Shown: piece after piece, positions 1-36,350 of the stretch
Layout: every line of letters begins with the position of its first letter
Numbering within the stretch: the first letter of the stretch is position 1
UHGV virus genome: UHGV-0207457
Length of the DNA: 36,350 bases
Origin: a virus
Strand: one strand, 5' to 3'
Made by a program: the position numbers and the translations under genes
The notes under the pieces: model-generated
What the model saw: the letters and a program-made list of their open reading frames with translations, nothing else
Databases searched by the model: none
What the model was told of the DNA's origin: nothing

Positions 1-137
1 GTCATGATCACTTTATTGAAGTACCTTTGAGCGTCGCCTCTAAAGTATTGCTGTTAAATGCTTTTTTACAGTCAGAAATCACTCAGCAAGAGTTAGCCAG
101 GCGAATTGGCAACCCGAATGTAGTCAACCCAAAATAA
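1..137 (+). CDS. 3' end of an ORF running off the left edge; C-terminal fragment with an HTH-like segment (…QSEITQQELARRIGNPNVVNPK*)
   Basis: Frame 3 is open from position 3 to TAA at 135-137; ELARRIG resembles the first helices of an XRE-type HTH. Too short to assign. Confidence 0.3.
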   Translation, partial: HDHFIEVPLSVASKVLLLNAFLQSEITQQELARRIGNPNVVNPK

Positions 138-369
138 CTAAAAATTTTGCAATAAAAAGCCCCATCTCAAGGACAAGGCTTAGAAATCAACTAATTAACA
201 TAGTTTCCAGATCAAAGGGGTTATAATGAAATCCATAAAAGGTGATCTGTTAGCTGGGTGCTGTATATCTAAAATGTTACTTAATTAATATCGTTCTGGT
301 GGTTAGCTTTCATCGCATCCCACCATTTTTGAGTAATCTTCATGCTATTGAATTGCATCATTTCACCTC

Positions 370-1149
370 TTACTCTGCGTCTACCATGTCACATGCAAAT
401 TGAGTGTGTTTATATTCAGAATCAAATTTTGGTTCAATTACTTCAAGACGCATGTCACCTTTTTTGCTTACCCAGATGTTATAAGTGTTAACACGTCCAA
501 TAGCATCCTGTTTGGATTTACCTTCCATTGCGTTTGGATTCTCTTTAGATGGCTTGAGACTTGATTTATAAACATCATACTTGTCGGAATACACAAAAGA
601 TACAGGAACATCGTCTACCATTTTGATCTTAAGTTTACCGCCGTTATTATCAAAAGTTTTGTTTCCGTAGAGTTTATCTTTTACAGCTTCTGTTTCCTCA
701 CCATCGATAACTTTCCATGTAAATTTTGTAGTACATGCGTAAATCGCGGTAACATTCAGTTTCTTTACTTCTTCCTGTTTCGGTTGTTCTTCTTCAATCT
801 TCGCAGAAGTCTCTGAATCGCTCTCTGACGCGGTTTCTTCTTTAGATAATACATTCATCAAGTTTTGGATTTGAGCGTTGTATACAGCCTCCAGTGGCTG
901 AATCTGCCCGATATTGATCATTGTATCACGAACAGTTTTATTCCAGTTGCGTTGCTCTTGTTTAAGAGACGGATCAATCTTAACAGCCTTAACATATACT
1001 TCATGAAGTTTAGAATCCAGTGCGGAGATTGACTCATTAGCACAAATAAACTTCTCTGATTTGGTTATAGCCTTAGTGCAATCAAAGGACGCAGCATCAG
1101 CACCGAAAGCAGTAGCAGAAAGCACGATAGCAGCGATAATGTTTTTCAT
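370..1149 (-). CDS. Secreted DUF1311 (LprI/YecT-like) domain protein with a Cys-bounded C-terminal domain; possible periplasmic lysozyme-inhibitor-like moron
   Basis: ATG at 1149 with AGAGGT Shine-Dalgarno; N-terminal signal peptide MKNIIAAIVLSATAFGADA; DUF1311-type motif C-x-K-A-x-T-x-x-E-x-x-IC ... QRNW; C-terminal ~120 aa bracketed by Cys (YAC...FACD), reminiscent of an MliC-like fold. Confidence 0.65.
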   Translation of the reverse strand: MKNIIAAIVLSATAFGADAASFDCTKAITKSEKFICANESISALDSKLHEVYVKAVKIDPSLKQEQRNWNKTVRDTMINIGQIQPLEAVYNAQIQNLMNVLSKEETASESDSETSAKIEEEQPKQEEVKKLNVTAIYACTTKFTWKVIDGEETEAVKDKLYGNKTFDNNGGKLKIKMVDDVPVSFVYSDKYDVYKSSLKPSKENPNAMEGKSKQDAIGRVNTYNIWVSKKGDMRLEVIEPKFDSEYKHTQFACDMVDAE

Positions 1150-1304
1150 TTTATACCTCTTTTGGTATGGACTGACTTTTAGATGCTTACTTTATTGATT
1201 TTTGATATTTTTTCAATTATTGGGATGAGATTTAGTAATTAAATTAAGAAATTAATGCTTGACAAATTAAAAAGGTACTGTTCCACGGATGAAATAAAGG
1301 GAGT

Positions 1305-1390
1305 TTTCGGCACCCCGGTATTTGATACGCGGGCGGGATTCTGAAACGTGATCACTTCACTTATGGCGCGGTCGCTACGCGACTATTAAC
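1305..1390. promoter_or_regulatory. GC-rich segment with partial dyad symmetry upstream of the Nu1-like gene; candidate cos/packaging recognition region
   Basis: ACGCGGGCGGGATTCTG and GGTCGCTACGCGAC lie in an AT-rich context about 120-190 bp upstream of the Nu1-like ORF; loosely resembles lambda cosN (GGGCGGCGACCT). Weak. Confidence 0.2.
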
Positions 1391-1507
1391 CCACTTCCTA
1401 GCCCTTACCATTACTGGATCTTTCCCTTCGTTAGAATGCGATTTAGGCGCTTAGATTGTGCGTAAAACCAATAAATAAAATTACGCAAATTTAATGGAGG
1501 ATAACCA

Positions 1508-2062
1508 ATGAAAGAAGAATTAACCCTTACAGAAATTTCCCGTTTATATGGTTATACATTGAATGGTGGCGGTAAGCGATGGTTAGAAAGGGGATTGCCA
1601 TTTAACACCAATACCCGCCGCGTGCCAGCCAAAGAAGGAACAGAATGGGTCTTGAAAAATATTATCAACCCGCTTAAACAAACTTCTATCAAAGAACAAA
1701 TCGATGTAGAGAAATTACGCCGTGAGCGTGCTTTGGCAGATGCAGCCGAACGAGAGAACCAGGAAAAAATGAATCTCCTGATTCCTGTCGGGTATGTAGA
1801 ACAGGAACTAGCGGAATATTGCGGAAAGGTGAAACAGACTATTTTGCAGATCGCCACAATCGACGCTTTAGAAATTCTCGAATCTGCCACTGATCAGAAA
1901 ACATTGAAGAATAAGCTAAGGGAGATCATCGAGCGTCGTTTAAATGAAGTAGGGGACTTGTTCGAAAATGCGGATTTGGGAGAAGACGAGGAAGAAGAAT
2001 TAGCATTAATCGATGAACCGGAACAAGAACCAGAAGAAGACGATGAATTTGATGTGTCTTAA
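1508..2062 (+). CDS. Nu1-like small terminase / DNA-binding packaging protein candidate (184 aa) with acidic C-terminal tail
   Basis: Strong RBS GGAGG; N-terminal HTH-like segment, GGGK motif and EKLRRE motif as in lambda Nu1; acidic tail EDEEEELALIDEPEQEPEEDDEFD. Lies ~6.2 kb from the large terminase, which is atypical. Confidence 0.45.
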   Translation: MKEELTLTEISRLYGYTLNGGGKRWLERGLPFNTNTRRVPAKEGTEWVLKNIINPLKQTSIKEQIDVEKLRRERALADAAERENQEKMNLLIPVGYVEQELAEYCGKVKQTILQIATIDALEILESATDQKTLKNKLREIIERRLNEVGDLFENADLGEDEEEELALIDEPEQEPEEDDEFDVS

Positions 2063-2162
2063 AATTTCTATACTAAATATATACGTGAAGGATGTTGAGC
2101 TGGTCAACGTCTACGGGGGAGAACATCCCCCGCTAACCTTTTTCTTATTTGAGGATTTACCT

Positions 2163-2264
2163 ATGGTTGAATTTTTGATTTATCTGGCTGTAGGATTAAC
2201 TATCGTATATTCACTGGCACATATTGGCATTTCTACTTTGTGTAACGCTTTCAAGTATCATTAA
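2163..2264 (+). CDS. Small hydrophobic membrane peptide (33 aa)
   Basis: ATG at 2163 after GAGGA; MVEFLIYLAVGLTIVYSLAHIGISTL is one predicted TM helix. Confidence 0.3.
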   Translation: MVEFLIYLAVGLTIVYSLAHIGISTLCNAFKYH

Positions 2265-2317
2265 TTAAATCGATGAATTGAACTATAGATGATGGTCGTT
2301 TTCAAAGAGGATTATCT

Positions 2318-2491
2318 ATGGATCTTTTTGTCTACTTTGCTACTCTGCTGTTTTTGACTATCGTCGCTGGCATTAAATTGATTTTTATATCGCTGGTGGT
2401 GTTTTTCAAATTTCTAATCGGTACGCCTTACGGCTGGGTATGCTTCTTTTTGTTTATTCTTTTTAGTTGCTGTAAAAAGGATACTAAATAA
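2318..2491 (+). CDS. Small membrane protein (57 aa, two hydrophobic segments)
   Basis: ATG at 2318 after AAGAGG; MDLFVYFATLLFLTIVAGIKLIFISLVVFF...; followed by tandem intrinsic terminators. Confidence 0.4.
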   Translation: MDLFVYFATLLFLTIVAGIKLIFISLVVFFKFLIGTPYGWVCFFLFILFSCCKKDTK

Positions 2492-2650
2492 TAGTGTAAT
2501 CTGCCTTTTCTCCTTATGGTTATTAACAGGGGATCTTCTTTGAGGATTCCCGATTAAAAGCCATAAAAACACACTTCCAGTACAGTGTTTTCATAGTCAG
2601 GATCTATACAACATAAAAACATAACAAGTATAGATTGAGTATTAATCCTC

Positions 2651-2676
2651 CCGCCCTTCGGGGCGGTTATTTTTCT
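2651..2676 (+). terminator. Intrinsic terminator (UUCG-loop hairpin + T-tract)
   Basis: CCGCCC-TTCG-GGGCGG followed by TTATTTTTC. Confidence 0.6.
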
Positions 2677-2746
2677 GGCTTTAAAGAATAATGTAGCATT
2701 ATGTTCATTATAACCTCATCTTTGTTGTGCAAACCTAAACTTACTA

Positions 2747-2771
2747 GGGACTCTTCGGAGTCCCTTTTTTT
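2747..2771 (+). terminator. Intrinsic terminator (UUCG-loop hairpin + T7 tract), abutting the stop of the convergent 80-aa gene
   Basis: GGGACTC-TTCG-GAGTCCC followed by TTTTTTT. Confidence 0.65.
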
Positions 2772-3012
2772 ATGCAACAATTCGAAGTGTAAGTTTCTTA
2801 TGTTGTGTAGGTTTAGTTTCATTTCGCCACTCAGGGAATACATGATCCATCATAACCGCATTAGTCTCATCAATCAGCTTTAAGGACTTTCTCAACGCCT
2901 TATTATCAGCTTTAAGTGTTTTAATCTCTGATTCCATCGCTACCATTCTTTCTTTCATTTTGGTAATTTCTAACATCAGATTACCCAGAAATTCTTTGTT
3001 TTGATTCATCAT
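2770..3012 (-). CDS. Small coiled-coil protein (80 aa)
   Basis: ATG ATG at 3012/3009 with GGGGTGA RBS; heptad-like MLEITKMKERMVAMESEIKTLKADNKALRKSLKL; last gene of the leftward operon. Confidence 0.5.
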   Translation of the reverse strand: MMNQNKEFLGNLMLEITKMKERMVAMESEIKTLKADNKALRKSLKLIDETNAVMMDHVFPEWRNETKPTQHKKLTLRIVA

Positions 3013-3027
3013 AGATTCACCCCTCTA

Positions 3028-4023
3028 TTAAGCTGCGTATGCGTAGGCGCTGTAGTTGGTGTCGTAGATAGCGTCATGCAGTGCCATCTGTGCTTCGCGG
3101 ATCTCGTCTTCGTTTACTTCAATCTCTTCTTGTTCTTCTTCGGTATCTTCCCAAGTGGTTTTGAATTTAGCCATAAAGTTATTGCGCAGGGATTCAAAGT
3201 TAGTAACAGGTGCGGATTCTTTTTCAACTTCAACCGGAACAACTACCGGAGCAACTTCTTGTTCTACTTCTGCAACAACACCCCAGCGATAGTTAAGGAG
3301 TTCTTCCAGTTCTTCATCAATGGATTTTTCTTCAACTGCTTCAACTTCAACCGCTGCTACTTCGAAAGTGGTTTCCTGTGCTGCCAGTTCAGCTTTCAGA
3401 GATGCGTTTTCAGCTTCCAGTTCAGCAATGCGTGCTTTCAGTGCTTCAACTTCGGAAGATTCAACCACTGCAACTTCTTCTTTAACTTCTTCAACTACTA
3501 CCGGAGAAACTTCTTTCTGTGCTTCTTTTTTGCAGAAGAAGGAGGAAGTAACCTGTAATGCGTGGTTGTAGAAGGAACCGCCTTTAGCGGTGTTAACAGT
3601 ACCAGAAACATCCTTTACAGTGGATTCGGTAGCAACAGTACGGAAGCGTTTTGCGACTTCCTGGGTCTCTACGCCGTATTCGTTACGTTTGCTCTTGTGA
3701 TGCATTACAGCACGGAAGCCGGAAGCAGTTTTAACAACAGCCAGATAGTAAGTTTCATCAGCTTTAACAGCACGAGCGAAGCAATAAACGGATTCACCTT
3801 CTACCAGTGTAGGTTTAACGTGACGTTTGTCGAAACGGTTAGTGATCTGCCATTCAGCACCGTCTTTGATGCCAGCATTCTGACGCATTTCGGTCAGAGT
3901 CTTACCGGATACTACTTCAAAGGATTTGTCTTGTTTGCTTGCTTTACCTTCCATGACGGTAATGTTCAGTTTGCCGTTGGATTTAATAAACAGGTTGAAG
4001 GTGATGCGCTTAGAATTTTTCAT
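3028..4023 (-). CDS. Hypothetical early protein (331 aa): N-terminal globular domain plus strongly acidic E/V/A-rich coiled-coil C-terminal half
   Basis: ATG at 4023 with GGAG RBS; the antisense + strand ORFs here are Phe/Asn/Cys-rich low-complexity, so the - strand is the coding one. Function not recognised. Confidence 0.75.
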   Translation of the reverse strand: MKNSKRITFNLFIKSNGKLNITVMEGKASKQDKSFEVVSGKTLTEMRQNAGIKDGAEWQITNRFDKRHVKPTLVEGESVYCFARAVKADETYYLAVVKTASGFRAVMHHKSKRNEYGVETQEVAKRFRTVATESTVKDVSGTVNTAKGGSFYNHALQVTSSFFCKKEAQKEVSPVVVEEVKEEVAVVESSEVEALKARIAELEAENASLKAELAAQETTFEVAAVEVEAVEEKSIDEELEELLNYRWGVVAEVEQEVAPVVVPVEVEKESAPVTNFESLRNNFMAKFKTTWEDTEEEQEEIEVNEDEIREAQMALHDAIYDTNYSAYAYAA

Positions 4024-4074
4024 TTATAAATACTCCTGAATGCTCTGTGTTAGTTTTAATGTTTCATGCTAAAA

Positions 4075-4110
4075 GCCTCCTTGCGCCAACAGGGAGGCTT
4101 TTTTATTTTT
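4075..4110 (+). terminator. Strong rho-independent terminator on + strand, located between two genes of the leftward (-) operon
   Basis: GCCTCC-N11-GGGAGGC hairpin followed by TTTTTTATTTTT; on the - strand the same hairpin is followed only by UUUUAGC. Confidence 0.5.
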
Positions 4111-4142
4111 AAAGCCATCATATAATTCTCAGTGAAAGTGGA

Positions 4143-4322
4143 TTAACAAACTTGAACGTTAATCTTTATCTGAATTTCGTATTTCTTCATTAGCTTATAG
4201 AATCCGCTTCTATCAATTCCTTCCTTCTTAAAGAAATTCTCGCCGCCTCGTTCAGTATCGCCATAAAAGCGTTTAGCAATATCAACAATCATTTCACGAG
4301 TAAACTTAACAGGTCTAGCCAT
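4143..4322 (-). CDS. Small DNA-binding protein with Fis-type C-terminal HTH (59 aa)
   Basis: ATG at 4322 with GAGGA RBS (the track start at 4337 is TTG); EGIDRSGFYKLMKKYEI matches the Fis/NtrC-type HTH motif; first gene of the leftward operon, next to the operator palindromes. Confidence 0.55.
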   Translation of the reverse strand: MARPVKFTREMIVDIAKRFYGDTERGGENFFKKEGIDRSGFYKLMKKYEIQIKINVQVC

Positions 4323-4421
4323 AAGTAGATTCCTCAAATGTGGATTAATAAGGACAATAAAAAGAGCTTTTCGCCCTCGATACTTCTATTTATAAAATGA
4401 TTTTCAGAAAACCCTGTAAAA

Positions 4422-4443
4422 CCACTGTATATCCGATCAGTGG
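4422..4443. promoter_or_regulatory. 22-bp palindromic operator candidate CCACTG-N10-CAGTGG
   Basis: Perfect 6-bp inverted arms with a 10-bp spacer, ~100 bp upstream of the leftward operon start. Confidence 0.45.
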
Positions 4444-4506
4444 GAGCACGAATTGCTAAAGAGAAGATTAATAATTAATCAATTCGTACATTATTCAATC
4501 GAAAAA

Positions 4507-4543
4507 GCACTGTATGTTTAACCAGTGCTGTATGTGTTAACAG
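4507..4543. promoter_or_regulatory. Second palindromic operator GCACTG-N10-CAGTGC overlapping a LexA-box-like CTGT-N8-ACAG
   Basis: GCACTGTATGTTTAACCAGTGC at 4507-4528; CTGTATGTGTTAACAG at 4528-4543 fits the E. coli SOS-box core CTGT-N8-ACAG. Confidence 0.4.
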
Positions 4544-4887
4544 TGAATCAGGGGATTTTCAGAAGTGAACAATCATTTCATGCATGTATTTATACACGAA
4601 AAAATCTTGCTTATCATCAATATGGGGATTGTTTCGAAAATTTCAACCCCTACCAACGAGAAAAAGTATAAAATAATCCTTGATAGTTGTCAATACACTT
4701 GACCTAAGCGAGAAATGACTATCAAAATTTTTGTGTGAAAATGGCGGATAACGATTATCAACCTTTATAACCTATTATAGCACGGCGACCTTTTGATCAT
4801 TCCTTTTAAATCATTCGGTTACCGCGATTTTTGGTGATTTTATGATTAAATAATATACAAGAATTTTCTATCAAAATTTTTGATGAA

Positions 4888-5010
4888 AACCCTACACTAC
4901 AAACCTACACTTTAAAGGGATTGGCCTACACTACACTAGCCAGTAAACCTACACTATAACACCCTCAAACCTACGCTATGAAACCTACACACCTACACTA
5001 ACCCTACACT
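4888..5010. repeat. Iteron array: at least 8 direct copies of (A)ACCTACAC(T) with roughly helical phasing
   Basis: Copies start at about 4891, 4904, 4925, 4948, 4970 (variant CCTACGC), 4984, 4993, 5003; spacings 9-23 bp; sits in a 1.2 kb ORF-free region. Confidence 0.7.
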
Positions 5011-5349
5011 TCAATCTCATAAGTGTATGATCTTGAAAGACATTTAACCTCACAGACCATAGAATATAAAATTCGAACTAACGTTCTCCTTTTTGCTCGT
5101 TTTCTCTCACTACGTTCAAGAAAGATCTCGCAAAAAGAATACGGCGTAGCCGTGCGCGAAGCGCCCATCAACACCTTCTAAGACCTGCAAGCAGGATTCG
5201 AAAGGGATTGGATAGTTCGCTTCGCTCACGTTCACGCCTACGGCGTTCACTCACTTTTGAAAGGATTTTCTTAGAAAGGGATTTAATACTAGTTACTAAC
5301 TGATTCTAGTAAACGAACGAAGTGAGTAACAATCACTTTCTAGAAAGGT

Positions 5350-5390
5350 ATTGGTATCCCTTCGGGATTGCAACCTTCGGTTGCTAAATT
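5350..5390 (+). ncRNA. Tandem UUCG-tetraloop hairpins (ATCCC-TTCG-GGAT; GCAACC-TTCG-GTTGC) ending an ORF-free structured segment; candidate small RNA 3' end or processing site
   Basis: Two adjacent perfect stems with TTCG loops followed by an A/T-rich tract; no ORF of 60 aa or more anywhere in 4338-5583. Confidence 0.25.
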
Positions 5391-5583
5391 GCTTCCTGAT
5401 TATTATTTCTCCAAAAGAAAGATTCTTATATTCTAAAGATACTTCTTCGTTTTGATGATGATTTAATCAAAACTATGAAGGAGGGCTATGCCCGACTGAA
5501 TACAATCACCTTTCATAATAACAAGAATTTTCTCTTTATAAATAATATTAGATTGATTCACTTTCTTTTAGAGGATTTCCACT

Positions 5584-6051
5584 ATGAACCATAAAATGAC
5601 TACCACTACTCCTTTCATCCTGTTAGGTTTTGATGCTGATAGCTTCCACAATGACAAGTTAATGAAGATGTTCCGTGAACGTGGTTATAACATCCTTTTC
5701 AATTCCGATGAATCCCATTTCTCTAGTGCATGGTATGCGTTTTGCCGTAATAAGAAGCCGACCATTGTTGTTAACGTCTTCACCGATGAAGATCGCTTAA
5801 AGTACCAGAATCTACCAGCAATTATTGTTCGTGATGATCTGCCGTTTGAAGTCCGTTCCGGTGACATTGATCTGGGTAGCTTCGTTACTGTCTATGAACT
5901 GGATGAAGCAATGTTTAACTACGGCAAAGAAACCGCTCAGGAAGCCCCAGAACAAGATGAAGAAGATGAGGAAGACGAAGACTACGCTCCAATCTGTTTT
6001 TCTTCTCAGAATGGCTTCTACGGTTACGATGAAGGCTTAGATATGCTGTAA
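5584..6051 (+). CDS. Hypothetical protein (155 aa) with acidic C-terminal tail
   Basis: ATG at 5584 after AGAGGA; tail QEAPEQDEEDEEDEDYAPICF; function not recognised. Confidence 0.65.
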   Translation: MNHKMTTTTPFILLGFDADSFHNDKLMKMFRERGYNILFNSDESHFSSAWYAFCRNKKPTIVVNVFTDEDRLKYQNLPAIIVRDDLPFEVRSGDIDLGSFVTVYELDEAMFNYGKETAQEAPEQDEEDEEDEDYAPICFSSQNGFYGYDEGLDML

Positions 6052-6073
6052 GTTAGGTCAACCCTTTGGCGTC

Positions 6074-6114
6074 TTGTCAAGGTGTATTGACAAAAATTTC
6101 TGACTTTTTATGAT
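6074..6114 (+). promoter_or_regulatory. Sigma70-like promoter (TTGACA-16-TATGAT) whose -35 lies inside a palindrome TTGTCAA-N6-TTGACAA
   Basis: TTGTCAAggtgtaTTGACAA at 6074-6093; TATGAT at 6109-6114; a further TTGACA at 6124; upstream of the small basic ORF and the antirepressor gene. Confidence 0.45.
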
Positions 6115-6171
6115 TATCGCACTTGACAACTTTGATTATATTTGACCTAGATTTGTAAAGAGGATGTAAGC

Positions 6172-6351
6172 ATGAAAACCTTTACCCGTGAACGTGAACC
6201 AGGGGTGATCGAAACCCGCCGTCGTCGTTATGTTAAGGGCTTTGGTTGGGCTACCGAAACCGTGGATGTGGAATATAAAGACGAATCCAAAGCACCGAAA
6301 CCATCACCTTTGCAAATGGCTTTACGCGGATTGTGTGCTAACAACAAATAA
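6172..6351 (+). CDS. Small basic protein (59 aa)
   Basis: ATG at 6172 after AAGAGGATG; MKTFTREREPGVIETRRRRYVKGFGW...; below the ORF-track length cutoff. Confidence 0.4.
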   Translation: MKTFTREREPGVIETRRRRYVKGFGWATETVDVEYKDESKAPKPSPLQMALRGLCANNK

Positions 6352-6442
6352 GAAATAGCTCTTATAAATAAAATTGTTCCGGTGGTGATGCCGGAACAGG
6401 GAGGATTAAATCGCAAAACCGTTAATTAAGGGGAATTTTACT

Positions 6443-7258
6443 ATGAATACTGTTACTACTATGAATACTGCTGTTAAAACTGCTTCCGTGTCTCTGGTTG
6501 TTGATAACACCAAACCACTGACCATGTCTTCTCGTCAGATCGCTGAATTTACCGGAAAAGAACACAAAAACGTTAAAGCTGATATTGTTAAGATGTTTAA
6601 AGCACTTGAATTAGATGCGCTGAAATCTCAGCGTATCTATTTTGACCAATATGGACGCGAACAAACCGAATATCACCTTGACGAAGAAATGACGCTGACT
6701 CTTGTTACTGGTTACGATGTTAAACGTCGAATGATTGTTATTCAGGAATGGAAACGACTGAAAGAAGAAAATGAAAAACTGCGTCAGGAACGGTTAGCCG
6801 TTAACCCGTATGCAGACTTTGAAGAAACCGACTGGATCGAACTGGCGTTAAAGAAAACTCGCGAGAACAAGCAACTGATTACTCTACATCATCGCAAATC
6901 CGTAGATAGCCATTCAATGACGCGTTTGTTAGGTGCTAAAAAGGGCGCTACGAAGGTTAAAGAAGCACTGACGGCCTTACGTACTGCCGGATACATTGAG
7001 CGCGTCTATGATGAAAATAACAAGCCGTGTGGGTATGTTGCTAATGATTCCGCGATACCGTTTTGCAGCATGAACGCTCACTATCAACTTTCTTTCACTG
7101 TTGATGTGCTTCCGGTGCTGGTTGAATTGGGTGTTCTTGAAGAAGAACAAAAAGCAGCTTTGACACTGCCTAAACCGAATAACACGATCATGATTCAGAA
7201 TAAAGCGACTATCATGATTCGTCAGAATGTTGGATCGCTAGAACACTTCGGACTGTAA
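6443..7258 (+). CDS. Rha-family phage regulatory protein / antirepressor-like (271 aa)
   Basis: N-terminal TMSSRQIAEFTGKEHKNVKADIVKM matches the Phage_pRha motif; separate C-terminal domain; followed by an intrinsic terminator. Confidence 0.75.
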   Translation: MNTVTTMNTAVKTASVSLVVDNTKPLTMSSRQIAEFTGKEHKNVKADIVKMFKALELDALKSQRIYFDQYGREQTEYHLDEEMTLTLVTGYDVKRRMIVIQEWKRLKEENEKLRQERLAVNPYADFEETDWIELALKKTRENKQLITLHHRKSVDSHSMTRLLGAKKGATKVKEALTALRTAGYIERVYDENNKPCGYVANDSAIPFCSMNAHYQLSFTVDVLPVLVELGVLEEEQKAALTLPKPNNTIMIQNKATIMIRQNVGSLEHFGL

Positions 7259-7266
7259 TAATTTTT

Positions 7267-7292
7267 GCCCCTGAATTTCAGGGGCTTTTTTG
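7267..7292 (+). terminator. Intrinsic terminator after the antirepressor gene
   Basis: GCCCCTGAA-T-TTCAGGGGC followed by TTTTTT. Confidence 0.65.
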
Positions 7293-7304
7293 TATCTGTA
7301 GGTA

Positions 7305-7331
7305 TAAAAAAAGCCAACCCCGAAGGATTGG
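7305..7331 (-). terminator. Intrinsic terminator for the leftward 7341-8206 operon
   Basis: On the - strand: GGCCAATCC-TTCG-GGGTTGGC followed by TTTTTTT. Confidence 0.6.
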
Positions 7332-7340
7332 CCTAGAGAA

Positions 7341-7571
7341 TCAAATTCCTGTTGCTTCTACCATTTCACCGTCAACCTGAACAAAGAATTTCAAATCAAC
7401 TTTATGTAGGGATTTGTATAGCTGGGCTATAGATAAGCCATGCTCATTTAATACCCGTTCTTTGTTCTCTTTACCTTTCGGTGCTTGATAGTATGCTTTT
7501 ACAATCGCTGCCAGTTGTTCACGATTAAAACGGGCAGGGCGACCGCGAGTAGCTTTAGTAGTCATAGTCAT
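7341..7571 (-). CDS. Small HTH DNA-binding protein (76 aa)
   Basis: ATG at 7571 preceded by GGAGAAA (the track start at 7598 is GTG); TRGRPARFNREQL and HGLSIAQLYKSLHK look like an HTH. Confidence 0.5.
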   Translation of the reverse strand: MTMTTKATRGRPARFNREQLAAIVKAYYQAPKGKENKERVLNEHGLSIAQLYKSLHKVDLKFFVQVDGEMVEATGI

Positions 7572-7600
7572 TTTCTCCAAATTAAAGTGAATGTTCACCT

Positions 7601-8206
7601 TTATTTAGAGGACTTACATTTTATCGGAAAAAGTTCTCCATCGTCAACCGACATAAAGAACTCTGCCTTAATCCCGTACTTCTTCAACCGTGAATAATAT
7701 GTACCCCGACTAATATCAACCTTGCGCAGCACTTCGAAGAACTCTTTAGGATTCCTGTAATAGTGGCTATATCGCACGTTAGCGAGTTCTACAAACAATT
7801 CCCTTGAATCACCATAGCCTTTCTTGAAAGCCACGTTACGATAGCGTGTAATGGCATGATTCAATCTCTTCTGTTTAAGCACTTCCCTGATCGGCTTCCA
7901 CTGCAACCGATAGATTGGACCGTCATCCACTCGATAATAACGCTTGATATCAAAATCAAACCATTCACGGACTCGCTGAAACTCTGTCTGTGATGTGCGA
8001 TGCTTCTTAAAGAAGTTATGAATATCGGTATACCCATGATCGCGATACAACTCGATTAAAATCTGTTTCGCTTCCTCGCGACTAAAGCCGGATGTTGTGT
8101 AATCAGTCTTCTTGTGATGGTGCTTAACTGGCAAACGATATTCATGATCGGTACAACAAGAAAAGGCTAATTTTAATTCATCTCTTTGTTGCTGATTAAT
8201 TAGCAT
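7601..8206 (-). CDS. Hypothetical basic protein (201 aa) with Fis-type C-terminal HTH
   Basis: ATG at 8206; VDISRGTYYSRLKKYGIK matches the Fis/NtrC-type HTH; transcribed divergently from the large terminase. Confidence 0.6.
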   Translation of the reverse strand: MLINQQQRDELKLAFSCCTDHEYRLPVKHHHKKTDYTTSGFSREEAKQILIELYRDHGYTDIHNFFKKHRTSQTEFQRVREWFDFDIKRYYRVDDGPIYRLQWKPIREVLKQKRLNHAITRYRNVAFKKGYGDSRELFVELANVRYSHYYRNPKEFFEVLRKVDISRGTYYSRLKKYGIKAEFFMSVDDGELFPIKCKSSK

Positions 8207-8293
8207 ACAACCCCCTTAAATCTTAATACCCGTATTTATCAAAATATCAACAATTTAATAAATACCTTCATATTTCGTAATGAGGGTAATTAC

Positions 8294-10198
8294 ATGAAAC
8301 TGATTTCTAATAAGGCAAAATTAAAAAAGATTCTCAGAAATATCACTGCTGCAATTCGCCCACCTAAAGCAATGAAACCTAGCGAGTGGGTAGAGGCTAA
8401 CGTAGTGGCTACCGATGGTGTTAAAGCCGGATCTCTAATTAAATTGCATCCCTTCCAACGTGGAATGATGGACGCGATCACCGAAGACCGTAGAAAAATT
8501 GTGCTAAAGTGCTCGGCACAGTTGGGTAAAACTCTTGTGCTAAACGGTATTATCTTTCACAGGATCGCCAGTAACCCTACTAATATCGGTGTTTTGCAAG
8601 CGAACGTTCGAGAATTGAACTCATGGATTGCGGGTAAGGTGAAGCCAGTATTAGAGGCAACCCCAGAATTAAAGGCGATGATCACCGACAAATCAGATCG
8701 CAATGCCGTTAACAACTCATCGATTATTCAGCTTCGTAACGGATCATTCATGTATTTCATGTCGCTGAACAGTCCATCACACTTGCGCGGTAAGACACTG
8801 CCTTTGATTATTCTGGATGAAGTTGATGCGGCTGATGAGTCAGACGAAGGGAACCCGATCCAGCTAGCGGAACAACGCGCAACCACTTTCGGTGATGATG
8901 CAAGGATCGTAATTGCTTCTACTCCAACTTCGCGGGATGGGGCGATAAACCAACAATGGGAACTCTCGGATAAAAGAAAATACCACGTCGTTTGCCAGCA
9001 TTGCGGACACAAACACGTAATGGAATGGAGTAGAGTATTCTTTGATTGGCATGTAATCAATGGTAAATCACTGCCGAATCCAGACACAGCCGTTTACCGT
9101 TGCCCGTCATGTGAAACTGATTGGTCAGAACCAGATCGCCTCCGTGCTGTTGCTCAGGGAGAATGGGTCGCCACCGAACCAAATGCGGAAGTAATCGGTT
9201 TTCATGCTAACCGCCTTATGTCTCCGTTTAGTTCTATCCGTGCGTGTGTGGTGGACTTTGCTGATAGCTACGCGAATATGTCACTGGCAACGTTCTATAA
9301 TGTGGTGCTCGGTGAAACCTTCGATGATCTTAACGAAGACCGCACAGCCGACGAACTGGAAACGCTGAAAACTGACATTAGCTTAGATAATATTCCTGAT
9401 GATGTTCTGGCTCTGGTAGGTGGAGTTGACCAGCAAAAAGACCGTCTGGAATCTACCTTGCTGGGTATCTCTCGTAAGGGGATATGCGTAGTTGATCACC
9501 GATCATTCTATGATGTGAACTGCGAACGCCACGAATCGCCAGCATATGACCAGCTTTATAACTTCCTGAAAGCGAAATTCTATACCCGATCCGGTGAACG
9601 AATCCCGATGCTATCTGCTTTCGTGGACTCATCGAACGGACGAGCTACAAACGTGATCTACCGTTTTTGCACTAGGTGGCAAAACCTATGCGCCATTAAA
9701 GGCGCAAGTAATGCTGATGCTCCAATCCTTCCGGCTAAGGACACAAGAACGGGTGGTTTTACCCTTAAAATTCTGGGCGTAAACAACCTTAAAACGATGA
9801 TCCGTGAAATGATTAACCGGAACTTGAGAGATGGCGATCCTCACACTGTCTTCCAGATTGGCGACGTTCCTGATGACTATTGCGAGCAATTGCTTTCTGA
9901 ACAGTTGAAACGGCAGGGTAATACCACACGTTGGGTAAAAGTTGGTCAGCAACGAAACGAGGCGCTCGACTGCCTGGCTTATTCCTATGCTGCTTCTCGC
10001 CATGTACTCAATAAAATGTCATGGGAAAAACTCGAAGCCATCAAAGATAGTTTGAACCGTGAACCAGAAGAATCCGTAGAAGCTCCTAAATCGCAATCTG
10101 ACGAGAAAATAGAAGAAACTAAGCCAATCACACGACCACAACGTCAAAACATCGCCAGACGCCCAAATAGAGGCCGTGGCTGGGTAACATCGTTCTAA
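8294..10198 (+). CDS. Terminase large subunit, lambda gpA-like (634 aa)
   Basis: Walker A-like SAQLGKT, Walker B ILDEVD, zinc-finger-like CQHCGH...CPSC; size and position ahead of the portal. Confidence 0.85.
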   Translation: MKLISNKAKLKKILRNITAAIRPPKAMKPSEWVEANVVATDGVKAGSLIKLHPFQRGMMDAITEDRRKIVLKCSAQLGKTLVLNGIIFHRIASNPTNIGVLQANVRELNSWIAGKVKPVLEATPELKAMITDKSDRNAVNNSSIIQLRNGSFMYFMSLNSPSHLRGKTLPLIILDEVDAADESDEGNPIQLAEQRATTFGDDARIVIASTPTSRDGAINQQWELSDKRKYHVVCQHCGHKHVMEWSRVFFDWHVINGKSLPNPDTAVYRCPSCETDWSEPDRLRAVAQGEWVATEPNAEVIGFHANRLMSPFSSIRACVVDFADSYANMSLATFYNVVLGETFDDLNEDRTADELETLKTDISLDNIPDDVLALVGGVDQQKDRLESTLLGISRKGICVVDHRSFYDVNCERHESPAYDQLYNFLKAKFYTRSGERIPMLSAFVDSSNGRATNVIYRFCTRWQNLCAIKGASNADAPILPAKDTRTGGFTLKILGVNNLKTMIREMINRNLRDGDPHTVFQIGDVPDDYCEQLLSEQLKRQGNTTRWVKVGQQRNEALDCLAYSYAASRHVLNKMSWEKLEAIKDSLNREPEESVEAPKSQSDEKIEETKPITRPQRQNIARRPNRGRGWVTSF

Positions 10199-10270
10199 TA
10201 ACTCGCCGTCCTTCGGGGCGGCTTACTCCTAAATATTGTTAATCCAATAACAATTAAATAAGGGGTGATT

Positions 10271-10765
10271 ATGAGTTTAGAACTAATTCCCTTAGTAATT
10301 CGTAAAGGCGAAAAAATCACGCTGGCGAATGAAGAGGGTGTAACAATTCAGGTAGGAAATAGTAAAGGTATCATTTATCAGGTTGATGATACTCCGGCTA
10401 ATCACGAGATTAAAACCTTAGATTTTGCCGAGGGTAAATATACCATCGTAACCACTTTGGAAGAAGAACTGGTATCAATGCAGGAATTAACTGTATTGCC
10501 AGTATTCGCCAAACAATCCAAAAAAGAACATCTGCGGGAGACTATCGCCAAAATCGAGCAAGTTATTTTCGCCCGTTTATCTGGGGACGAAGCCGCATTA
10601 TCTCAAATGACCGTGAAAGGGAATACTTTCGCCTATGAGTCATTAGGTGTTCTCCAGCAATTAAAGACTGATTATGAACGTCAACTGTCTAAATTAATTC
10701 AAGCCGAACGACGTAAACAGGGAATTAGCCCGATTAAAAATATCAAATTACGTCTTACGCGATAA
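10271..10765 (+). CDS. Head morphogenesis / head-tail joining protein (164 aa), in the position of lambda gpW
   Basis: ATG at 10271 with AGGGG RBS (track start 10265 is GTG); between terminase and portal. Confidence 0.55.
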   Translation: MSLELIPLVIRKGEKITLANEEGVTIQVGNSKGIIYQVDDTPANHEIKTLDFAEGKYTIVTTLEEELVSMQELTVLPVFAKQSKKEHLRETIAKIEQVIFARLSGDEAALSQMTVKGNTFAYESLGVLQQLKTDYERQLSKLIQAERRKQGISPIKNIKLRLTR

Positions 10766-10775
10766 GGGGTAAATC

Positions 10776-12287
10776 ATGTTTAATCTTTTTCGACGCAATA
10801 AGGCGGTAGAAACTCCAGTTAAAACTAATCACCGCCAGCAACAACAAAAAATCTTTATCGACAAACAAGTAGAAAAATTCCAGAAAGATTTGTCTAAGCG
10901 TTCTTTGGGCTTAGTTGGTGATCGCATTGATGGATCGCTTCAACAAGATACTATCACAGGAACCTTCAATAAGGCTCTCAAATCGAATGGTAAGCGCCTT
11001 TATGACCAGGGTCGTACTCTGGCCTTAAACACTTCCGTAGGCAGTCGCTACACGCAATACATCACCGATATGGTGGTAGGTACTGGCCTAGATCCGAAGC
11101 CGTCAGTTGTTAAATCAAATGGAAAACTTGATAGCGCACTGAATAAGCAGATCGAGAATGCTTTCTGGAAGTGGGCGCAGAATGCTAAACGCTTCTCCCG
11201 CAATGGTCGTTTTAACTTCCGTGAACTGCTGGTAATGGCTGAACGTGAGCGCGTTATGGGTGGTGAGTGCTTCATCGTTTTAACCAAAGAAAACAATGAG
11301 TTAAATGTTTCTATCCTGTCTGCTGATAAGTGCGACTGGTCGCTAAACCGTGAAGTAAGCAAAGACCGTGCGATATATCAAGGTGTGGAGTATGACGTAG
11401 AGACGATGAAGCCCGTAGCATACTGGTTTCGTAAAATCAACCTACTGACTCAGACTTACACAGGTGATAACTATCGCGTAGATGCTTCGCAAGTATGCCA
11501 TTATTATCAACCACTTGCGGCTGAATCTCTGCGTGGTGTGACTGACTTCCTGCCAGTGATTAAGGATATCGCACATCAAGACGCATTCCGCGAAGCTGTA
11601 CTGGTCCAGAAACGAATTTCAGCTAGTAGCATGGCGTTCATCGAGCGTCCGAAAGATTCTGGTGACGATTTTGATACTGGTGAAGATGATGAACAATATC
11701 AAGCGCCGGAAGTTATTCACGATTTCGCGCCGGGTACTATTCAGGAATTGCCGGAAGGGGCAACGATCAAGAGTATTCAATCCACGCAAAGCGGCGATGA
11801 TTTCAATTCATTTAACGCTGGTATGTTCACTAGCATAGCAATGGGTCTTGGCGTGTTCAATCAGGGCTTAACTGGCGATACTAGCCAAATAAATTACAGC
11901 GCTGCACGCTACGGCGAATTACTTCAAAGAACGCGCGTTAAAGCACTGCAAAACAAATTAATTGAAACAGTGGTATTGCCAATTTTCGAAGCGTATCTGC
12001 GTCATTATTCCGCGCGTGGTATTGTTCCGATTCGTATTACTGCAATTCCGCATATTATCGATAACACTACTATTATTCGTCCGCGTTTTGAATCCGTCGA
12101 TCCATTTAAAGACGTAAGCGCCGAGATTGCTTTAATTGATAACGGACTTAAATCACGTACTGCCGTTATATTGGAACGTGGTGATGATCCTGAAAAAGTA
12201 TTCTCAGAGATTCAAGCCGAAAAAAGCGCACTAAATATTATCGTTGATGGCGAGGGTGAAGAAAAAAATTCCCCAGCCGATCCCTAA
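10776..12287 (+). CDS. Portal protein (503 aa), lambda gpB-like
   Basis: Size, acidic C-terminus and position between terminase and the protease-capsid gene; RBS GGGG. Confidence 0.75.
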   Translation: MFNLFRRNKAVETPVKTNHRQQQQKIFIDKQVEKFQKDLSKRSLGLVGDRIDGSLQQDTITGTFNKALKSNGKRLYDQGRTLALNTSVGSRYTQYITDMVVGTGLDPKPSVVKSNGKLDSALNKQIENAFWKWAQNAKRFSRNGRFNFRELLVMAERERVMGGECFIVLTKENNELNVSILSADKCDWSLNREVSKDRAIYQGVEYDVETMKPVAYWFRKINLLTQTYTGDNYRVDASQVCHYYQPLAAESLRGVTDFLPVIKDIAHQDAFREAVLVQKRISASSMAFIERPKDSGDDFDTGEDDEQYQAPEVIHDFAPGTIQELPEGATIKSIQSTQSGDDFNSFNAGMFTSIAMGLGVFNQGLTGDTSQINYSAARYGELLQRTRVKALQNKLIETVVLPIFEAYLRHYSARGIVPIRITAIPHIIDNTTIIRPRFESVDPFKDVSAEIALIDNGLKSRTAVILERGDDPEKVFSEIQAEKSALNIIVDGEGEEKNSPADP

Positions 12288-12333: not shown

Positions 12334-14340
12334 ATGCTTAAATTTCGCCGCGAACTTAACGGTTACGGTGGAGTTATTAACGAAGGGCATAACGATCAAT
12401 ACGAATTTGAAATTGCTTTCTCCAGTGAACAGCCTTATCAGCGCCAATTCTGGGATGAGCAAAATCAAGAAATGGTGGTATTAGATGAAATTCTGGTACA
12501 TACACCGGAAGCGGTTGATCTGTCTCGTCTGAATAATAACGCTCCGTTGCTGTTTAATCATAATTTCGATAATCATTTAGGTGTCGTTTGTAACGCTCGA
12601 ATCGATGCGGATAAAGTAGGCCGTGCGACCGTTAGATTCTCTAAGCATGGCACTTTGGCTAATGATATTCGTAATAAAGTCATTGAAGGTACGATGGAAA
12701 AAATTTCTGTCGGTTATGACATTAAAGAATATCACATCGATTATGCCAAAGGACAATTGATTGTTACTAAGTTTGTTCCTTTCGAATTAAGTTTTGTTAC
12801 GGTCCCGGCGGACGATTCGGTCGGTTTAAATCGCTCTCTAAATACTATCACAGTTAATTTGGAGGCTAAACGCGATATGACTAAAGAACAAATCGAAGAA
12901 ATCAAAGAAGAACAAGAACCCGCTCAGGTTGAAGAAACTCCGGTAGAAGAAAATAAAGAATCGGAAGTTGAAGAAACTCAAGAGCGCCAAGTTGAAGAGA
13001 ATAAAGAAGATGAAAATCTCGAAGACGGAAAAGACGCTGAACATCCTGAAAGTGTTGATGATGATAGTTCAACTGTTCGGGAAACAGAAGAAGTAAAAGA
13101 AGAACGTGAAGCCGTTCCGGTTGAAGAAGAAAAAACCGAGGAAGTGGCTGAACGTTCCGAAGAAGACGAATTAGAAATCCGCGAGATCGCGCGGGAACTA
13201 AATATTGACGACGAAGAATTAAAACGCGCATTGGCAATTAAAGACATGACGCCGGAAGCATTCCGCACTAAGGCACTAAATAACATTACCAATGCTCAAC
13301 GTATTAACGAACAAATTAATAAGGAACAAATCATGGAAAAAACTTTCGATCTTAATAACGTAATCCGCTCCCTGGTAGATGGCGACGTGCTCGGCGCTAA
13401 CGAAGCTGAATATTCCGCTATGGCTGCTGGTGCTGCAATGCAGCGTGGTCGTGCTGCTCGCGGTGGCTCTGTATTCGTTCCGGCTGCTGCTCTGCGTGCT
13501 GCTTCCGAAGGTAACACCAAAGCTACTCTGACCGCTGTTACTGATGAAAAACTGCTGACTGAATCCTACATCGAAATGCTGTTGCCTCAGAGTGTTTTAG
13601 GCCGCCTCGGTGTAACCGTTCTGTCTGGCCTGACTTCCCCGATCGCTGTTCCGAAAATGACCGCTTCCAGCGTCGAAGCCTTTGGTTTTGTTGACGAAAA
13701 TGGGGCTGCCCCCGAGTCACATGCGGAATTTTCGAACGTGAAAATGGCTCCTAAGACGTTCGCTGGTGGGAATCCGATCAGCAGAGCTAGCATAAAGCAA
13801 GTTCCCGGCATCGCTACCCTGATCACTGATCACATTAACAAATCTGTTCGGATCAAACTGGAACAACTGATTCTGTCTGACAAAGACAACGAGCGCGGTC
13901 CGGCTGGCCTGGTTAAGCAACTGGTAGACGCGGGTCGCGTTACTAAGAAAGCCGCTTTCTCTTACAAAGACTTCCTGAAAGAAATTGCAGCACTGACCGA
14001 CGCTGGCGTTCCTGCTCAGGCGATCAAGTTTGCGATGAGCGGTGCAACTGCTGCTGAACTGGAATCTACCCTGAAAGATAACGGCGTTTCCGGTTATATC
14101 ATCGAAAACGGCAAACTGGCTGGTTACGAAGTAGTTACTTCTGGTGTTATCCCGGCAGACCACATCGTTCTGGGCGCGTTTGACGGTATCACCATTGGTG
14201 AGTGGGGCGGTCTTGAACTGGATATGGACGACACTACCTACCGCGCACAGTCTGCTATCGTTCCGCGAATCTGGGTAGACCTGGATTATGTTGTTACTCA
14301 GCCGGAAGCTCTGAAAGTTCTTCACATCTCCGCTGAATGA
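12334..14340 (+). CDS. Fused prohead protease - scaffold-like acidic linker - HK97-fold major capsid protein (668 aa); ends in TGA
   Basis: N-terminal ~170 aa carry prohead-protease-like motifs (LLFNHNFDNHLG, ISVGY, ELSFVTVPAD); residues ~180-300 are Glu-rich; C-terminal ~340 aa is capsid-like. Confidence 0.85.
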   Translation: MLKFRRELNGYGGVINEGHNDQYEFEIAFSSEQPYQRQFWDEQNQEMVVLDEILVHTPEAVDLSRLNNNAPLLFNHNFDNHLGVVCNARIDADKVGRATVRFSKHGTLANDIRNKVIEGTMEKISVGYDIKEYHIDYAKGQLIVTKFVPFELSFVTVPADDSVGLNRSLNTITVNLEAKRDMTKEQIEEIKEEQEPAQVEETPVEENKESEVEETQERQVEENKEDENLEDGKDAEHPESVDDDSSTVRETEEVKEEREAVPVEEEKTEEVAERSEEDELEIREIARELNIDDEELKRALAIKDMTPEAFRTKALNNITNAQRINEQINKEQIMEKTFDLNNVIRSLVDGDVLGANEAEYSAMAAGAAMQRGRAARGGSVFVPAAALRAASEGNTKATLTAVTDEKLLTESYIEMLLPQSVLGRLGVTVLSGLTSPIAVPKMTASSVEAFGFVDENGAAPESHAEFSNVKMAPKTFAGGNPISRASIKQVPGIATLITDHINKSVRIKLEQLILSDKDNERGPAGLVKQLVDAGRVTKKAAFSYKDFLKEIAALTDAGVPAQAIKFAMSGATAAELESTLKDNGVSGYIIENGKLAGYEVVTSGVIPADHIVLGAFDGITIGEWGGLELDMDDTTYRAQSAIVPRIWVDLDYVVTQPEALKVLHISAE

Positions 14341-14531: not shown

Positions 14532-14822
14532 ATGTTCAAATTATCAGAATCACAATTAAATCGAATGTTTAAAAGTGCTCCTGTATTTGTGGTGGAAGGT
14601 GGTAAATCAATTCGTGCTTATCATGAAATTACTACTACCGACGAATCAGGGGTAATGACAGAAACAGAATTTCTATTCTGTCGTGAGGGAGACTTAAAGC
14701 AAGGTGATATTGTCACAGTAGAAAACCAGCGTTTCAAAGTTCAATACGTTAAGCGTAATGGTGATAATACAACTGATTGCTTTATTACTCTGGCAGGGGG
14801 TACACATGCTCGCTATCGTTAA
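14532..14822 (+). CDS. Head-tail connector/adaptor protein (96 aa)
   Basis: Strong RBS AGGGGG; position directly after the capsid gene. Confidence 0.55.
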   Translation: MFKLSESQLNRMFKSAPVFVVEGGKSIRAYHEITTTDESGVMTETEFLFCREGDLKQGDIVTVENQRFKVQYVKRNGDNTTDCFITLAGGTHARYR

Positions 14823-15228
14823 TAATATGCCTAGACTGAAAATCAAACGCGCCTTGCAAGATATTATCGAACAAGATTTAGGTCTGGCTTTAAACGTAGA
14901 ACAAACTCAGCAAGGCTTTAGTGATGACGTGGTTTGTTGGATTACTGGTATGAATGAGACTTACACTAGGGTCCGTGGTGGTAATGCAATGCAAGCTGAA
15001 TGCGTTATCGAAATGCAGTTATATTCTCAGATTCATGAAACGAAAATTCATGAGGGTATTTGCCAGATAATCCAGATTCAGCCGGATAACCCACGATTTA
15101 AAGATTTGGGCTTCTCTATTTCAGATATCACTCCAGTAGCCTCTAATACCGATTATGACGATGATTCTAGTGATGGGGGTATCGTTGGGACACTTAGCCT
15201 TAAATTTTCTTATCTAGCGCGTTTTTAA
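14806..15228 (+). CDS. Head-tail joining / tail completion protein (140 aa)
   Basis: ATG at 14806 after AGGGGG, overlapping the previous stop (track start 14758 is upstream in the same frame). Confidence 0.55.
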   Translation: MLAIVNNMPRLKIKRALQDIIEQDLGLALNVEQTQQGFSDDVVCWITGMNETYTRVRGGNAMQAECVIEMQLYSQIHETKIHEGICQIIQIQPDNPRFKDLGFSISDITPVASNTDYDDDSSDGGIVGTLSLKFSYLARF

Positions 15229-33834: not shown

Positions 33835-33897
33835 ACCATTTCCAAACAAAAACGCCCCTACCGCGTATTATAACGATAGGGGCTAGGTGATTAAAGA

Positions 33898-35339: not shown

Positions 35340-35365
35340 GTACCCCCTCGTGTTATTGTGGGTAC
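35340..35365. promoter_or_regulatory. Inverted repeat GTACCC-N14-GGGTAC covering the RBS of the 90-aa gene, at the AT-rich to GC-rich transition; candidate translational-control hairpin or att-associated sequence
   Basis: Seen directly in sequence; on the mRNA the GGGGGUAC of the Shine-Dalgarno can pair with the upstream GUACCC. Confidence 0.3.
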
Positions 35366-35410
35366 ATGATATTTGGCAAACCTAAACAGGAGATTACTCG
35401 CCTATTTAAC

Positions 35411-35445
<35 letters not shown>

Positions 35446-35569
35446 TGCGGCAAAGGCGCTTGGCAAAGAGTTATCGCTGGTGATGGTTTAATTACAGTTA
35501 ACGAAAAGTTGTCATTTTTAACAACTGATATAGACTGCCGAATCATCTGCACATAATTACGATTCGATA

Positions 35570-36350
35570 ATGAAAAAATACCAGCAGCTTGCAGAACAAT
35601 TACGCGAGCAGATTGCGTCGGGTATCTGGCAACCCGGCGATCGTTTGCCTTCGTTGCGTGACCAGGTGGCGCTTTCAGGCATGAGCTTTATGACTGTCAG
35701 CCATGCCTATCAGTTGCTCGAAAGTCAGGGATATATTATCGCACGACCGCAGTCGGGTTATTACGTTGCGCCACAGGCAATAAAAATGCCGAAAGCGCCA
35801 GTCATTCCAGTCACTCGAGATGAAGCAGTCGATATCAACACTTATATTTTTGATATGTTGCAGGCCAGTCGCGATCCGTCGGTCGTTCCGTTTGCCTCGG
35901 CCTTTCCCGACCCGCGACTTTTCCCCCTCCAACAACTAAACCGCTCGCTGGCGCAGGTAAGCAAAACCGCCACGGCGATGAGCGTGATTGAAAACTTACC
36001 GCCAGGAAACGCAGAACTGCGTCAGGCTATTGCTCGTCGCTATGCCTTACAGGGCATCACCATTTCTCCTGATGAAATTGTCATTACTGCCGGGGCGTTA
36101 GAGGCATTAAACCTCAGTTTGCAAGCGGTAACTGAACCGGGCGATTGGGTGATAGTAGAGAATCCTTGTTTCTATGGCGCGTTGCAGGCGCTGGAACGGC
36201 TACGGCTGAAAGCGTTATCGGTGGCGACGGATGTTAAAGAAGGGATAGATCTTCAGGCGTTGGAACTGGCGTTGCAGGAGTATCCGGTGAAAGCGTGCTG
36301 GCTGATGACTAATAGCCAGAATCCACTCGGATTTACCTTAACGCCGCAAA
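35570..36350 (+). CDS. yjiR: Host MocR/GntR-family regulator (N-terminal HTH plus start of the aminotransferase-like domain), YjiR-like; runs off the right edge
   Basis: ATG at 35570; MKKYQQLAEQLREQIASGIWQPGDRLPSLRDQVALSGMSFMTVSHAYQLLESQGYIIARPQSGYYVA is a typical MocR N-terminus and matches my recollection of E. coli YjiR; GC content is clearly higher than the prophage. Confidence 0.6.
   Translation, partial: MKKYQQLAEQLREQIASGIWQPGDRLPSLRDQVALSGMSFMTVSHAYQLLESQGYIIARPQSGYYVAPQAIKMPKAPVIPVTRDEAVDINTYIFDMLQASRDPSVVPFASAFPDPRLFPLQQLNRSLAQVSKTATAMSVIENLPPGNAELRQAIARRYALQGITISPDEIVITAGALEALNLSLQAVTEPGDWVIVENPCFYGALQALERLRLKALSVATDVKEGIDLQALELALQEYPVKACWLMTNSQNPLGFTLTPQ

Follow-up and report, generated by a model that had tools for sequence, protein, structure and literature searches.

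The 36,350-nucleotide (nt) stretch of DNA analysed here, virus genome UHGV-0207457 (hereafter the window), carries a prophage in which the genes for the two terminase subunits lie far apart. The gene at 1508-2062 probably codes for a small terminase subunit (TerS); its product is genuinely, if remotely, homologous to lambda Nu1, and 6,231 nt separate its stop codon from the start of the gene for a gpA-type large subunit (TerL). The best explanation overall, which we consider likely, is that 1508-2062 is the true Nu1-type TerS gene, that a candidate cos site lies beside it and that an early module splits the pair. This explanation is carried by what sequence comparison demonstrates, namely homology to Nu1, a split conserved among relatives, the canonical gene order in a sister clade and a single-copy cis element linked to TerS. 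No description of the split Nu1-type TerS/TerL arrangement was found in the literature.

Identity of the 1508-2062 product

The genes at issue are the following.

1508-2062, + strand: candidate Nu1-type TerS gene, 184 amino acids (aa), with a strong ribosome-binding site, GGAGGA, at 1496-1501
2651-2666, + strand: terminator-like hairpin closing the short TerS operon, CCGCCCTTCGGGGCGG followed by a T run
8294-10198, + strand: gpA-type TerL gene, 634 aa (GpA_ATPase PF05876, E 1.4e-59; GpA_nuclease PF20454, E 2.6e-46; phrog_15, E 3.7e-142)

An earlier note on this DNA had placed a Nu1-like gene about 6.2 kb from a gpA-type terminase, with membrane peptides, a leftward operon, iterons, an antirepressor and a second leftward operon in between. 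Both the coordinates and the list of intervening features proved accurate, and the 87 nt that precede TerL indeed hold no + strand gene. TerL itself is of gpA type, with an N-terminal GpA ATPase and a C-terminal GpA nuclease domain that are both full-length. The note had left it undecided whether the small subunit is unusually distant or whether 1508-2062 codes for a Nu1-like regulator, the true TerS being unrecognised. Our results favour the distant subunit, on the grounds of Nu1 homology, of overlapping terminase genes in a sister clade (below) and of a lack of any other candidate in 1-8300; they give no support to the regulator.

In a profile search of the open reading frames (ORFs) of 1-8300, the 1508-2062 protein matched phrog_57, 'terminase small subunit' (E 1.6e-10), its only PHROG match, and no rival TerS appeared; no other ORF in this region or flanking TerL resembles any TerS family. 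We compared it with lambda Nu1 (sequence from NC_001416) using hhalign. A profile of 18 close homologues (alignment A1) aligned to Nu1 over residues 5-94 with 93% probability (E 2.8e-7), and a profile of 60 distant representatives (alignment A3) over residues 4-128, against Nu1 residues 2-144, with 99% probability (E 2.3e-18). The wider alignment takes in the predicted winged helix-turn-helix (HTH) plus the helical region behind it (residues 60-128). A protein of 184 aa whose residues 60-128 align to the helical region of Nu1 does not fit among the short, single winged-HTH proteins of excisionase or MerR kind.

The 18-homologue profile, run on 1.84 billion representatives, retrieved 232 proteins at E <= 0.001, mostly of 150-200 aa. 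Sixty full-length representatives all matched phrog_57; 42 of the 60 also matched phrog_141, another TerS family, and 25 of the 60 matched Pfam Phage_Nu1 (best E 6.4e-20). Three TerS structures (6hn7, 1j9i and 7lw0) gave weak matches to the N-terminus of the candidate. The AlphaFold2 (AF2) model shows a helix-helix-strand-helix arrangement with long helices after it and, at residues 158-184, an acidic tail that is disordered. In E. coli ETEC1739 the homologue is labelled 'terminase small subunit' by PGAP; its residues 1-90 are of a different type, and its C-terminal half is identical to that of the window protein. A word-indexed search recovered close relatives only, in E. coli, Salmonella and Proteus. 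By tblastn nothing was found in the phage collection at E 1e-5, a single record, DCP80, appearing at E 5e-4, and a search of genome contigs with the A1 profile yielded no confirmed locus. The 201-aa and 85-aa proteins encoded beside TerL were also tried as alternative TerS and discarded: neither showed similarity in family scans, and the 201-aa protein reached 0.1% probability in hhalign against a Nu1-family profile.

Gene order in relatives

We fetched 50-odd loci and placed TerS and TerL in each of them by tblastn. Thirty close relatives, from E. coli, Salmonella (L004), Proteus (L006) and IMG/VR, have a gap of 5.7-8.6 kb between the two genes, with TerS proteins 52-100% and TerL proteins 53-100% identical to those of the window. 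In seven more distant viral contigs (P0076-type; TerS about 37%, TerL 45-51% identity) the gap is 4.8-6.1 kb. The genes are thus split in all 37 of these relatives that have both on the fetched stretch, by 4.8-8.6 kb, and the arrangement is more than chance because it recurs across relatives.

In the next clade out, the seven P0079-type loci (L043-L049, from IMG/VR; TerS 33%, TerL 39% identity), TerS and TerL overlap, the gap being -28 to -73 nt, and the order of head genes after TerL is the same as in the window. Because the P0079-type orthologue overlaps TerL, the 1508-2062 product is the orthologue of a canonically placed Nu1-type TerS. We regard this synteny as the strongest argument for its identity as TerS. 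As judged from gene order, the split is a derived feature that is stably inherited in the lineage.

The phage collection holds no close isolated phage. Its closest TerL, 43% identical, is that of DCP80 (L003/L054, GenBank PQ671644), where the TerS homologue (32% identity, E 5e-4) is distant from TerL, between the endolysin gene, which it follows directly, and a leftward operon. The DCP80 record is classified as Straboviridae and looks chimeric: its first ~29 kb look like a small phage with a gpA terminase, a relative of the prophage, and the rest is T4-like (motA, ndd, rIIA).

A candidate cos site in the TerS leader

Four parts of the DNA upstream of TerS are referred to below.

1259-1507, + strand: conserved non-coding leader of TerS, from an alignment of 27 upstream regions of close relatives
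1271-1360, + strand: best cos candidate, about 90 nt, consisting of AA-AGGTWCT, ~21 nt, GCGnnnTTTC, a GC-rich core, TnTTT, ~13 nt, TTTTnAAA and GGTTnAGTTA
1361-1455, + strand: variable GC-rich stretch with the palindrome GTCGC-TAC-GCGAC (1371-1383), candidate cosB-like TerS binding region
1459-1487: inverted repeat TGCGTAA-N15-TTACGCA, AT-rich at its centre and 21 nt upstream of the TerS ATG

Conservation of the leader starts abruptly at ~1259, independently of the cargo gene upstream, and 1305-1460 has 50% G+C as against 24-28% in flanking intergenic DNA. The GC-rich core of the 1271-1360 element is 9-11 nt long across clades (CGGCACCCCGG at 1308-1318 in the window). The element is found in the split clades examined and also in the P0079-type sister clade with overlapping terminase genes, at 230-322 nt from the TerS ATG in the former and 101-141 nt in the latter. 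The window has a single match to its strict pattern, where chance would give 0.08. Throughout the fetched loci this pattern lies on the + strand upstream of TerS only, 101-322 nt from the ATG, with the exception of L029, where it is found ~2 kb upstream of a fragmentary TerS match. As would be expected of a cos site, the element is a single site upstream of TerS: the window has it once, and in most of the clades examined it is linked to TerS. In the cargo-less locus L050 the phage-side attachment (att) arm lies ~125 nt from it. Neither a clear R-site triplet nor an IHF consensus turned up.

The cos-like GC-rich element that the earlier note had seen upstream of TerS held up in part, as a conserved single-copy element with a GC core that travels with TerS. 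On these comparisons we give about an even chance that the 1271-1360 element is cos, with a cosN-like GC core. Several other readings of this DNA were set aside. GGGCGGG at 1333-1339 as a lambda-like cosN is not conserved in relatives with 98-99% identical terminases. The leader is not recognisable as a structured RNA (no Rfam match, fold z-score -0.85), and no second copy of its motif, as for a common late promoter, was found near TerL. The ends of the phage-sized Logan contigs L050-L052, tried as virion termini, stop at the att junction or at assembly or variant branch points.

The adjoining stretch 1361-1455 differs where the N-terminal halves of TerS differ though the C-terminal halves are identical (ETEC1739, L002, as compared with the window), and is a cosB-like candidate because it diverges together with the DNA-binding half of TerS. 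Physical linkage alone could explain this co-divergence. The inverted repeat at 1459-1487 has no second copy in the window, was matched in 0 of 100 shuffles and is kept in the E. coli and Salmonella types; it is probably the operator or promoter region of the TerS operon, as its sequence and position suggest.

Alternative explanations

Several observations weigh against the assignment of the 1271-1360 element as cos. It is absent upstream of TerS in the P0074-type loci L034 and L035. Dyad symmetry is lacking in the element, its GC-rich core included. The leader does not differ between loci with one or the other of the two TerL types found in the lineage, although this is less telling because both types have a common nuclease half. 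There is also a second GC-rich non-coding island at ~5088-5260 (50-55% G+C), adjoining the iterons. A role as promoter or activator site would suit the 1271-1360 element equally well. TerS would then be genuine and cos would lie elsewhere, in the ~5088-5260 island or near TerL, the 1271-1360 element serving the TerS operon, which needs a promoter of its own since the gene before it is read from the opposite strand. Against this, the element is single-copy and therefore not common to a TerL or late operon. It still stands just 5' of TerS in the sister clade, where same-strand genes precede and read-through is possible, and its position there is the one where lambda-like phages carry cos. As for the other places proposed, neither the Salmonella nor the Proteus relatives conserve the ~5088-5260 island, and G+C is only 28% in the 87 nt that lead up to TerL. 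We therefore hold a cos site elsewhere to be rather unlikely.

The identity of TerS also has points against it. Pfam gives no family for the 1508-2062 protein, even at E <= 0.1 (the gathering score of Phage_Nu1, PF07471, is not reached), and NCBIfam gives no meaningful match. The AF2 model is of moderate confidence (pLDDT 68.7) and fold searches were uninformative, the top Foldseek matches being MerR/BldC folds and not significant. The lack of a Pfam family and the MerR/BldC matches, together with the position of the gene 0.1-1.4 kb from attL and far from TerL and with the match of the HTH part of 17 of the 60 relatives to phrog_66, 'excisionase and transcriptional regulator', would suit a Nu1-fold regulator or a recombination directionality factor (RDF) for the serine integrase, the real TerS being unrecognised or dispensable. 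Such a protein would not be expected to show Nu1 homology past the HTH and into the self-association helices, nor to have orthologues that overlap the TerL start in the sister clade; the gene is moreover present in every relative carrying this TerL, and there is no alternative TerS candidate, all of which makes a regulator or RDF very unlikely. Several relatives have insertion sequences (IS), ISApl1 or mcr-1 insertions or truncated genes, which raises the question of whether the split is a scar of a defective prophage with no functional meaning. This is extremely improbable: the same order with intact ORFs is found in E. coli, Salmonella, Proteus and IMG/VR contigs whose TerL identities span 45-100%, and the split is also seen in the phage-derived DCP80 record.

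We thus return to a true TerS with its candidate cos beside it. In the arrangement that we propose, the predicted winged HTH at the N-terminus of TerS would recognise phage DNA, the central helices would self-associate and the C-terminal part would recruit the gpA-type TerL (8294-10198). The TerS gene and its adjoining recognition site would lie next to attP, with the early, regulatory and iteron module between TerS and TerL; set apart from TerL by this module, TerS would therefore form a short operon by itself, equipped with an operator-like inverted repeat. The 1361-1455 stretch would be cosB-like, and packaging may start at the 1271-1360 element and run towards TerS. The circular map would then read attP, optional cargo, cos candidate, TerS operon, early/regulatory/iteron module, TerL, head, tail, lysis, integrase and attP. 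Compared with lambda and the sister clade, the early module would have come to lie between the terminase genes and the recognition site would have stayed with TerS.

The TerL proteins are mosaic. The ATPase part (window 8342-9352) is swapped in 12 of the 30 close relatives (~40%; e.g. L008, L010, L013), giving proteins of ~58% overall identity in which the first 16 codons and the nuclease half keep ~87% DNA identity. Because TerS proteins that are 92-100% identical occur with both TerL types, the separation seems to allow independent reassortment of TerS and TerL types. That the unlinked TerS and cos are exploited further, with TerS acting as a regulator or RDF that couples serine-integrase excision to packaging in addition to such reassortment, strikes us as distinctly unlikely.

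DNA between and beyond the terminase genes

The DNA between TerS and TerL looks like an early, regulatory and iteron module of 6.2 kb. Its main features are these.

2770-4337, - strand: leftward operon whose three genes code for products of 80 aa, 331 aa (containing a coiled coil) and 64 aa (HTH-like)
4888-5014, + strand: iteron array (CCTACAC(T), seven copies) that probably serves as origin or regulatory site
6443-7258, + strand: Rha/Ant-type regulator (Phage_pRha, E 2.7e-11; phrog_63)
7341-8206, - strand: leftward operon (85 aa and 201 aa), divergent from TerL, with no family matches

Small hydrophobic ORFs follow TerS at 2013-2491 (+ strand). Of the genes in the first leftward operon, those for the 331-aa and 64-aa proteins are matched in both the Salmonella and the Proteus relatives, that for the 80-aa protein in Salmonella only. 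The iteron array lies in a 1.25-kb non-coding stretch; a 155-aa gene and a 59-aa gene also lie between TerS and TerL. The Rha/Ant-type gene is accessory, being absent in the Proteus relative. The 64-aa protein (4143-4337, - strand) and the 85-aa protein (7341-7598, - strand) are paralogues (E 3e-7), one in each leftward operon, and the 201-aa protein (7601-8206, - strand) has motifs that, judged by eye, resemble theirs. None of these three proteins matched a known family.

Iterons of two specificities occupy the same map position: CCTACACT in the E. coli relatives (seven copies in the window) and ATCCCTAG in the Salmonella and Proteus relatives (9-13 copies, at ~13430-13690 in L004 and ~12940-13220 in L006). 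Candidate readers are the 331-aa or the 155-aa protein. The iterons are ruled out as TerS binding sites since the type of array is independent of the TerS DNA-binding type: L002 has the same iterons as the window despite a different TerS DNA-binding type, and the Salmonella and Proteus relatives have ATCCCTAG in common, yet their TerS N-termini are unlike each other. In two prophage copies (H46 and H48, in the chromosomes of E. coli PE15 and HeN100) ISApl1/mcr-1.1 and other IS are found between the TerS and TerL genes.

Downstream of TerL the head module continues in lambda-like fashion.

10265-10765, + strand: head-tail joining protein (phrog_5774, a match given for the 10265-12287 pair)
10776-12287, + strand: portal, with orthologues that carry Phage_portal_2

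Next comes a single 668-aa ORF (12334-14340, + strand) in which a prohead serine protease (Peptidase_S78) is joined to an HK97-type major capsid domain (Phage_capsid). ARAGORN predicted a 91-nt tRNA-Glu at 14993-15083 (- strand) inside the + strand ORF 14758-15228, probably a false positive.

Integration and upstream cargo

119-35375: prophage of ~35.3 kb in hicB of an E. coli host; hicB is broken at ~118 and resumes at ~35375
32155-33849, - strand: large serine recombinase (Resolvase, Recombinase and Zn_ribbon_recom domains)

The host flanks of the window are 1-118 and ~35376-36350, and the prophage has an overall G+C of 41.8%. TGGCAA is found at both junctions (~108-138 and ~35360-35380), and the conserved phage-side att arm is CCCGAAYGTAGTCAACCC. 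Of 5,426 complete E. coli genomes, 64 carry a related prophage, in the chromosome in every case, and others are found in Salmonella and Proteus. Insertion sites vary, with hicB used in strain C325, and the lineage uses several chromosomal sites, because relatives are also found in ycdX (ETEC1739) and beside phnI (another assembly).

The cargo gene upstream of the TerS leader differs between relatives and is lacking in L050. In the window it is a gene at 370-1149 (- strand; of note, 769-1155) for an LprI-family (lysozyme-inhibitor-like) lipoprotein, of which the 5' 380 nt match a hypothetical gene of the RB49-like T-even phages (Krischvirus) at 95-97% DNA identity. Such a match suggests that a temperate prophage and virulent phages have recently exchanged this DNA.

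Comparison with known systems

The split has consequences for annotation, since TerS is labelled 'hypothetical protein' in most genomes and tools that seek TerS beside TerL would miss it. A sister clade with the canonical order and common cis landmarks provides a clean case for how a lambda-type module splits, and comparison with it indicates that the recognition site, a candidate as regards its cos role, stays with TerS and not with TerL. The mosaics are a natural experiment on specificity, one swapping the TerS DNA-binding half with the leader and the other the TerL ATPase half.

The prophage resembles lambda (cos - Nu1 - A) in that its TerS is homologous to Nu1, with a predicted N-terminal winged HTH, and its TerL, of gpA type, combines an ATPase with a nuclease domain. 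In both, a GC-containing site that occurs once lies a few hundred nt before the TerS gene, and genes for a head-tail joining protein and a lambda-B-type portal come after TerL. Unlike the lambda genes, which overlap (nu1 191-736, A 711-2636), those of the prophage are 6.2 kb apart, with TerS in its own short operon bearing an operator-like inverted repeat. The prophage TerS also scores too low for Pfam Phage_Nu1, the sequence of lambda cosN is not preserved in the lineage, and integration is by a serine recombinase.

The sister clade L043-L049 resembles the prophage in its homologous terminase subunits, in the order TerL, 166-aa protein, portal and protease-capsid, and in the AGGTWCT ... GC core element upstream of TerS; it differs in that TerS overlaps TerL, the element is closer to the ATG and there is no operator-like inverted repeat. 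DCP80 is alike in a TerS homologue distant from TerL and followed by a leftward operon, and unlike in that no integrase lies in the stretch examined; as its record looks chimeric, the true distance and ends are uncertain.

Non-adjacent terminase genes are established in P2/186 (gpM small, gpP large), where capsid genes in divergent late operons separate the subunits of P2, and in T7 (genes 18 and 19), where ~1 kb of lysis genes does so. The terminase protein families of these phages differ from those of the prophage, and we know of no whole early or regulatory module between the subunit genes in P2 or T7. Because non-adjacent terminase genes are thus known in other phage families, the arrangement described here is a new gene-order variant and not a new kind of system. 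The accepted view of packaging is unchanged by it: it is a conserved gene-order variant of the lambda-type packaging module, in an uncharacterised prophage lineage, and not a new mechanism.

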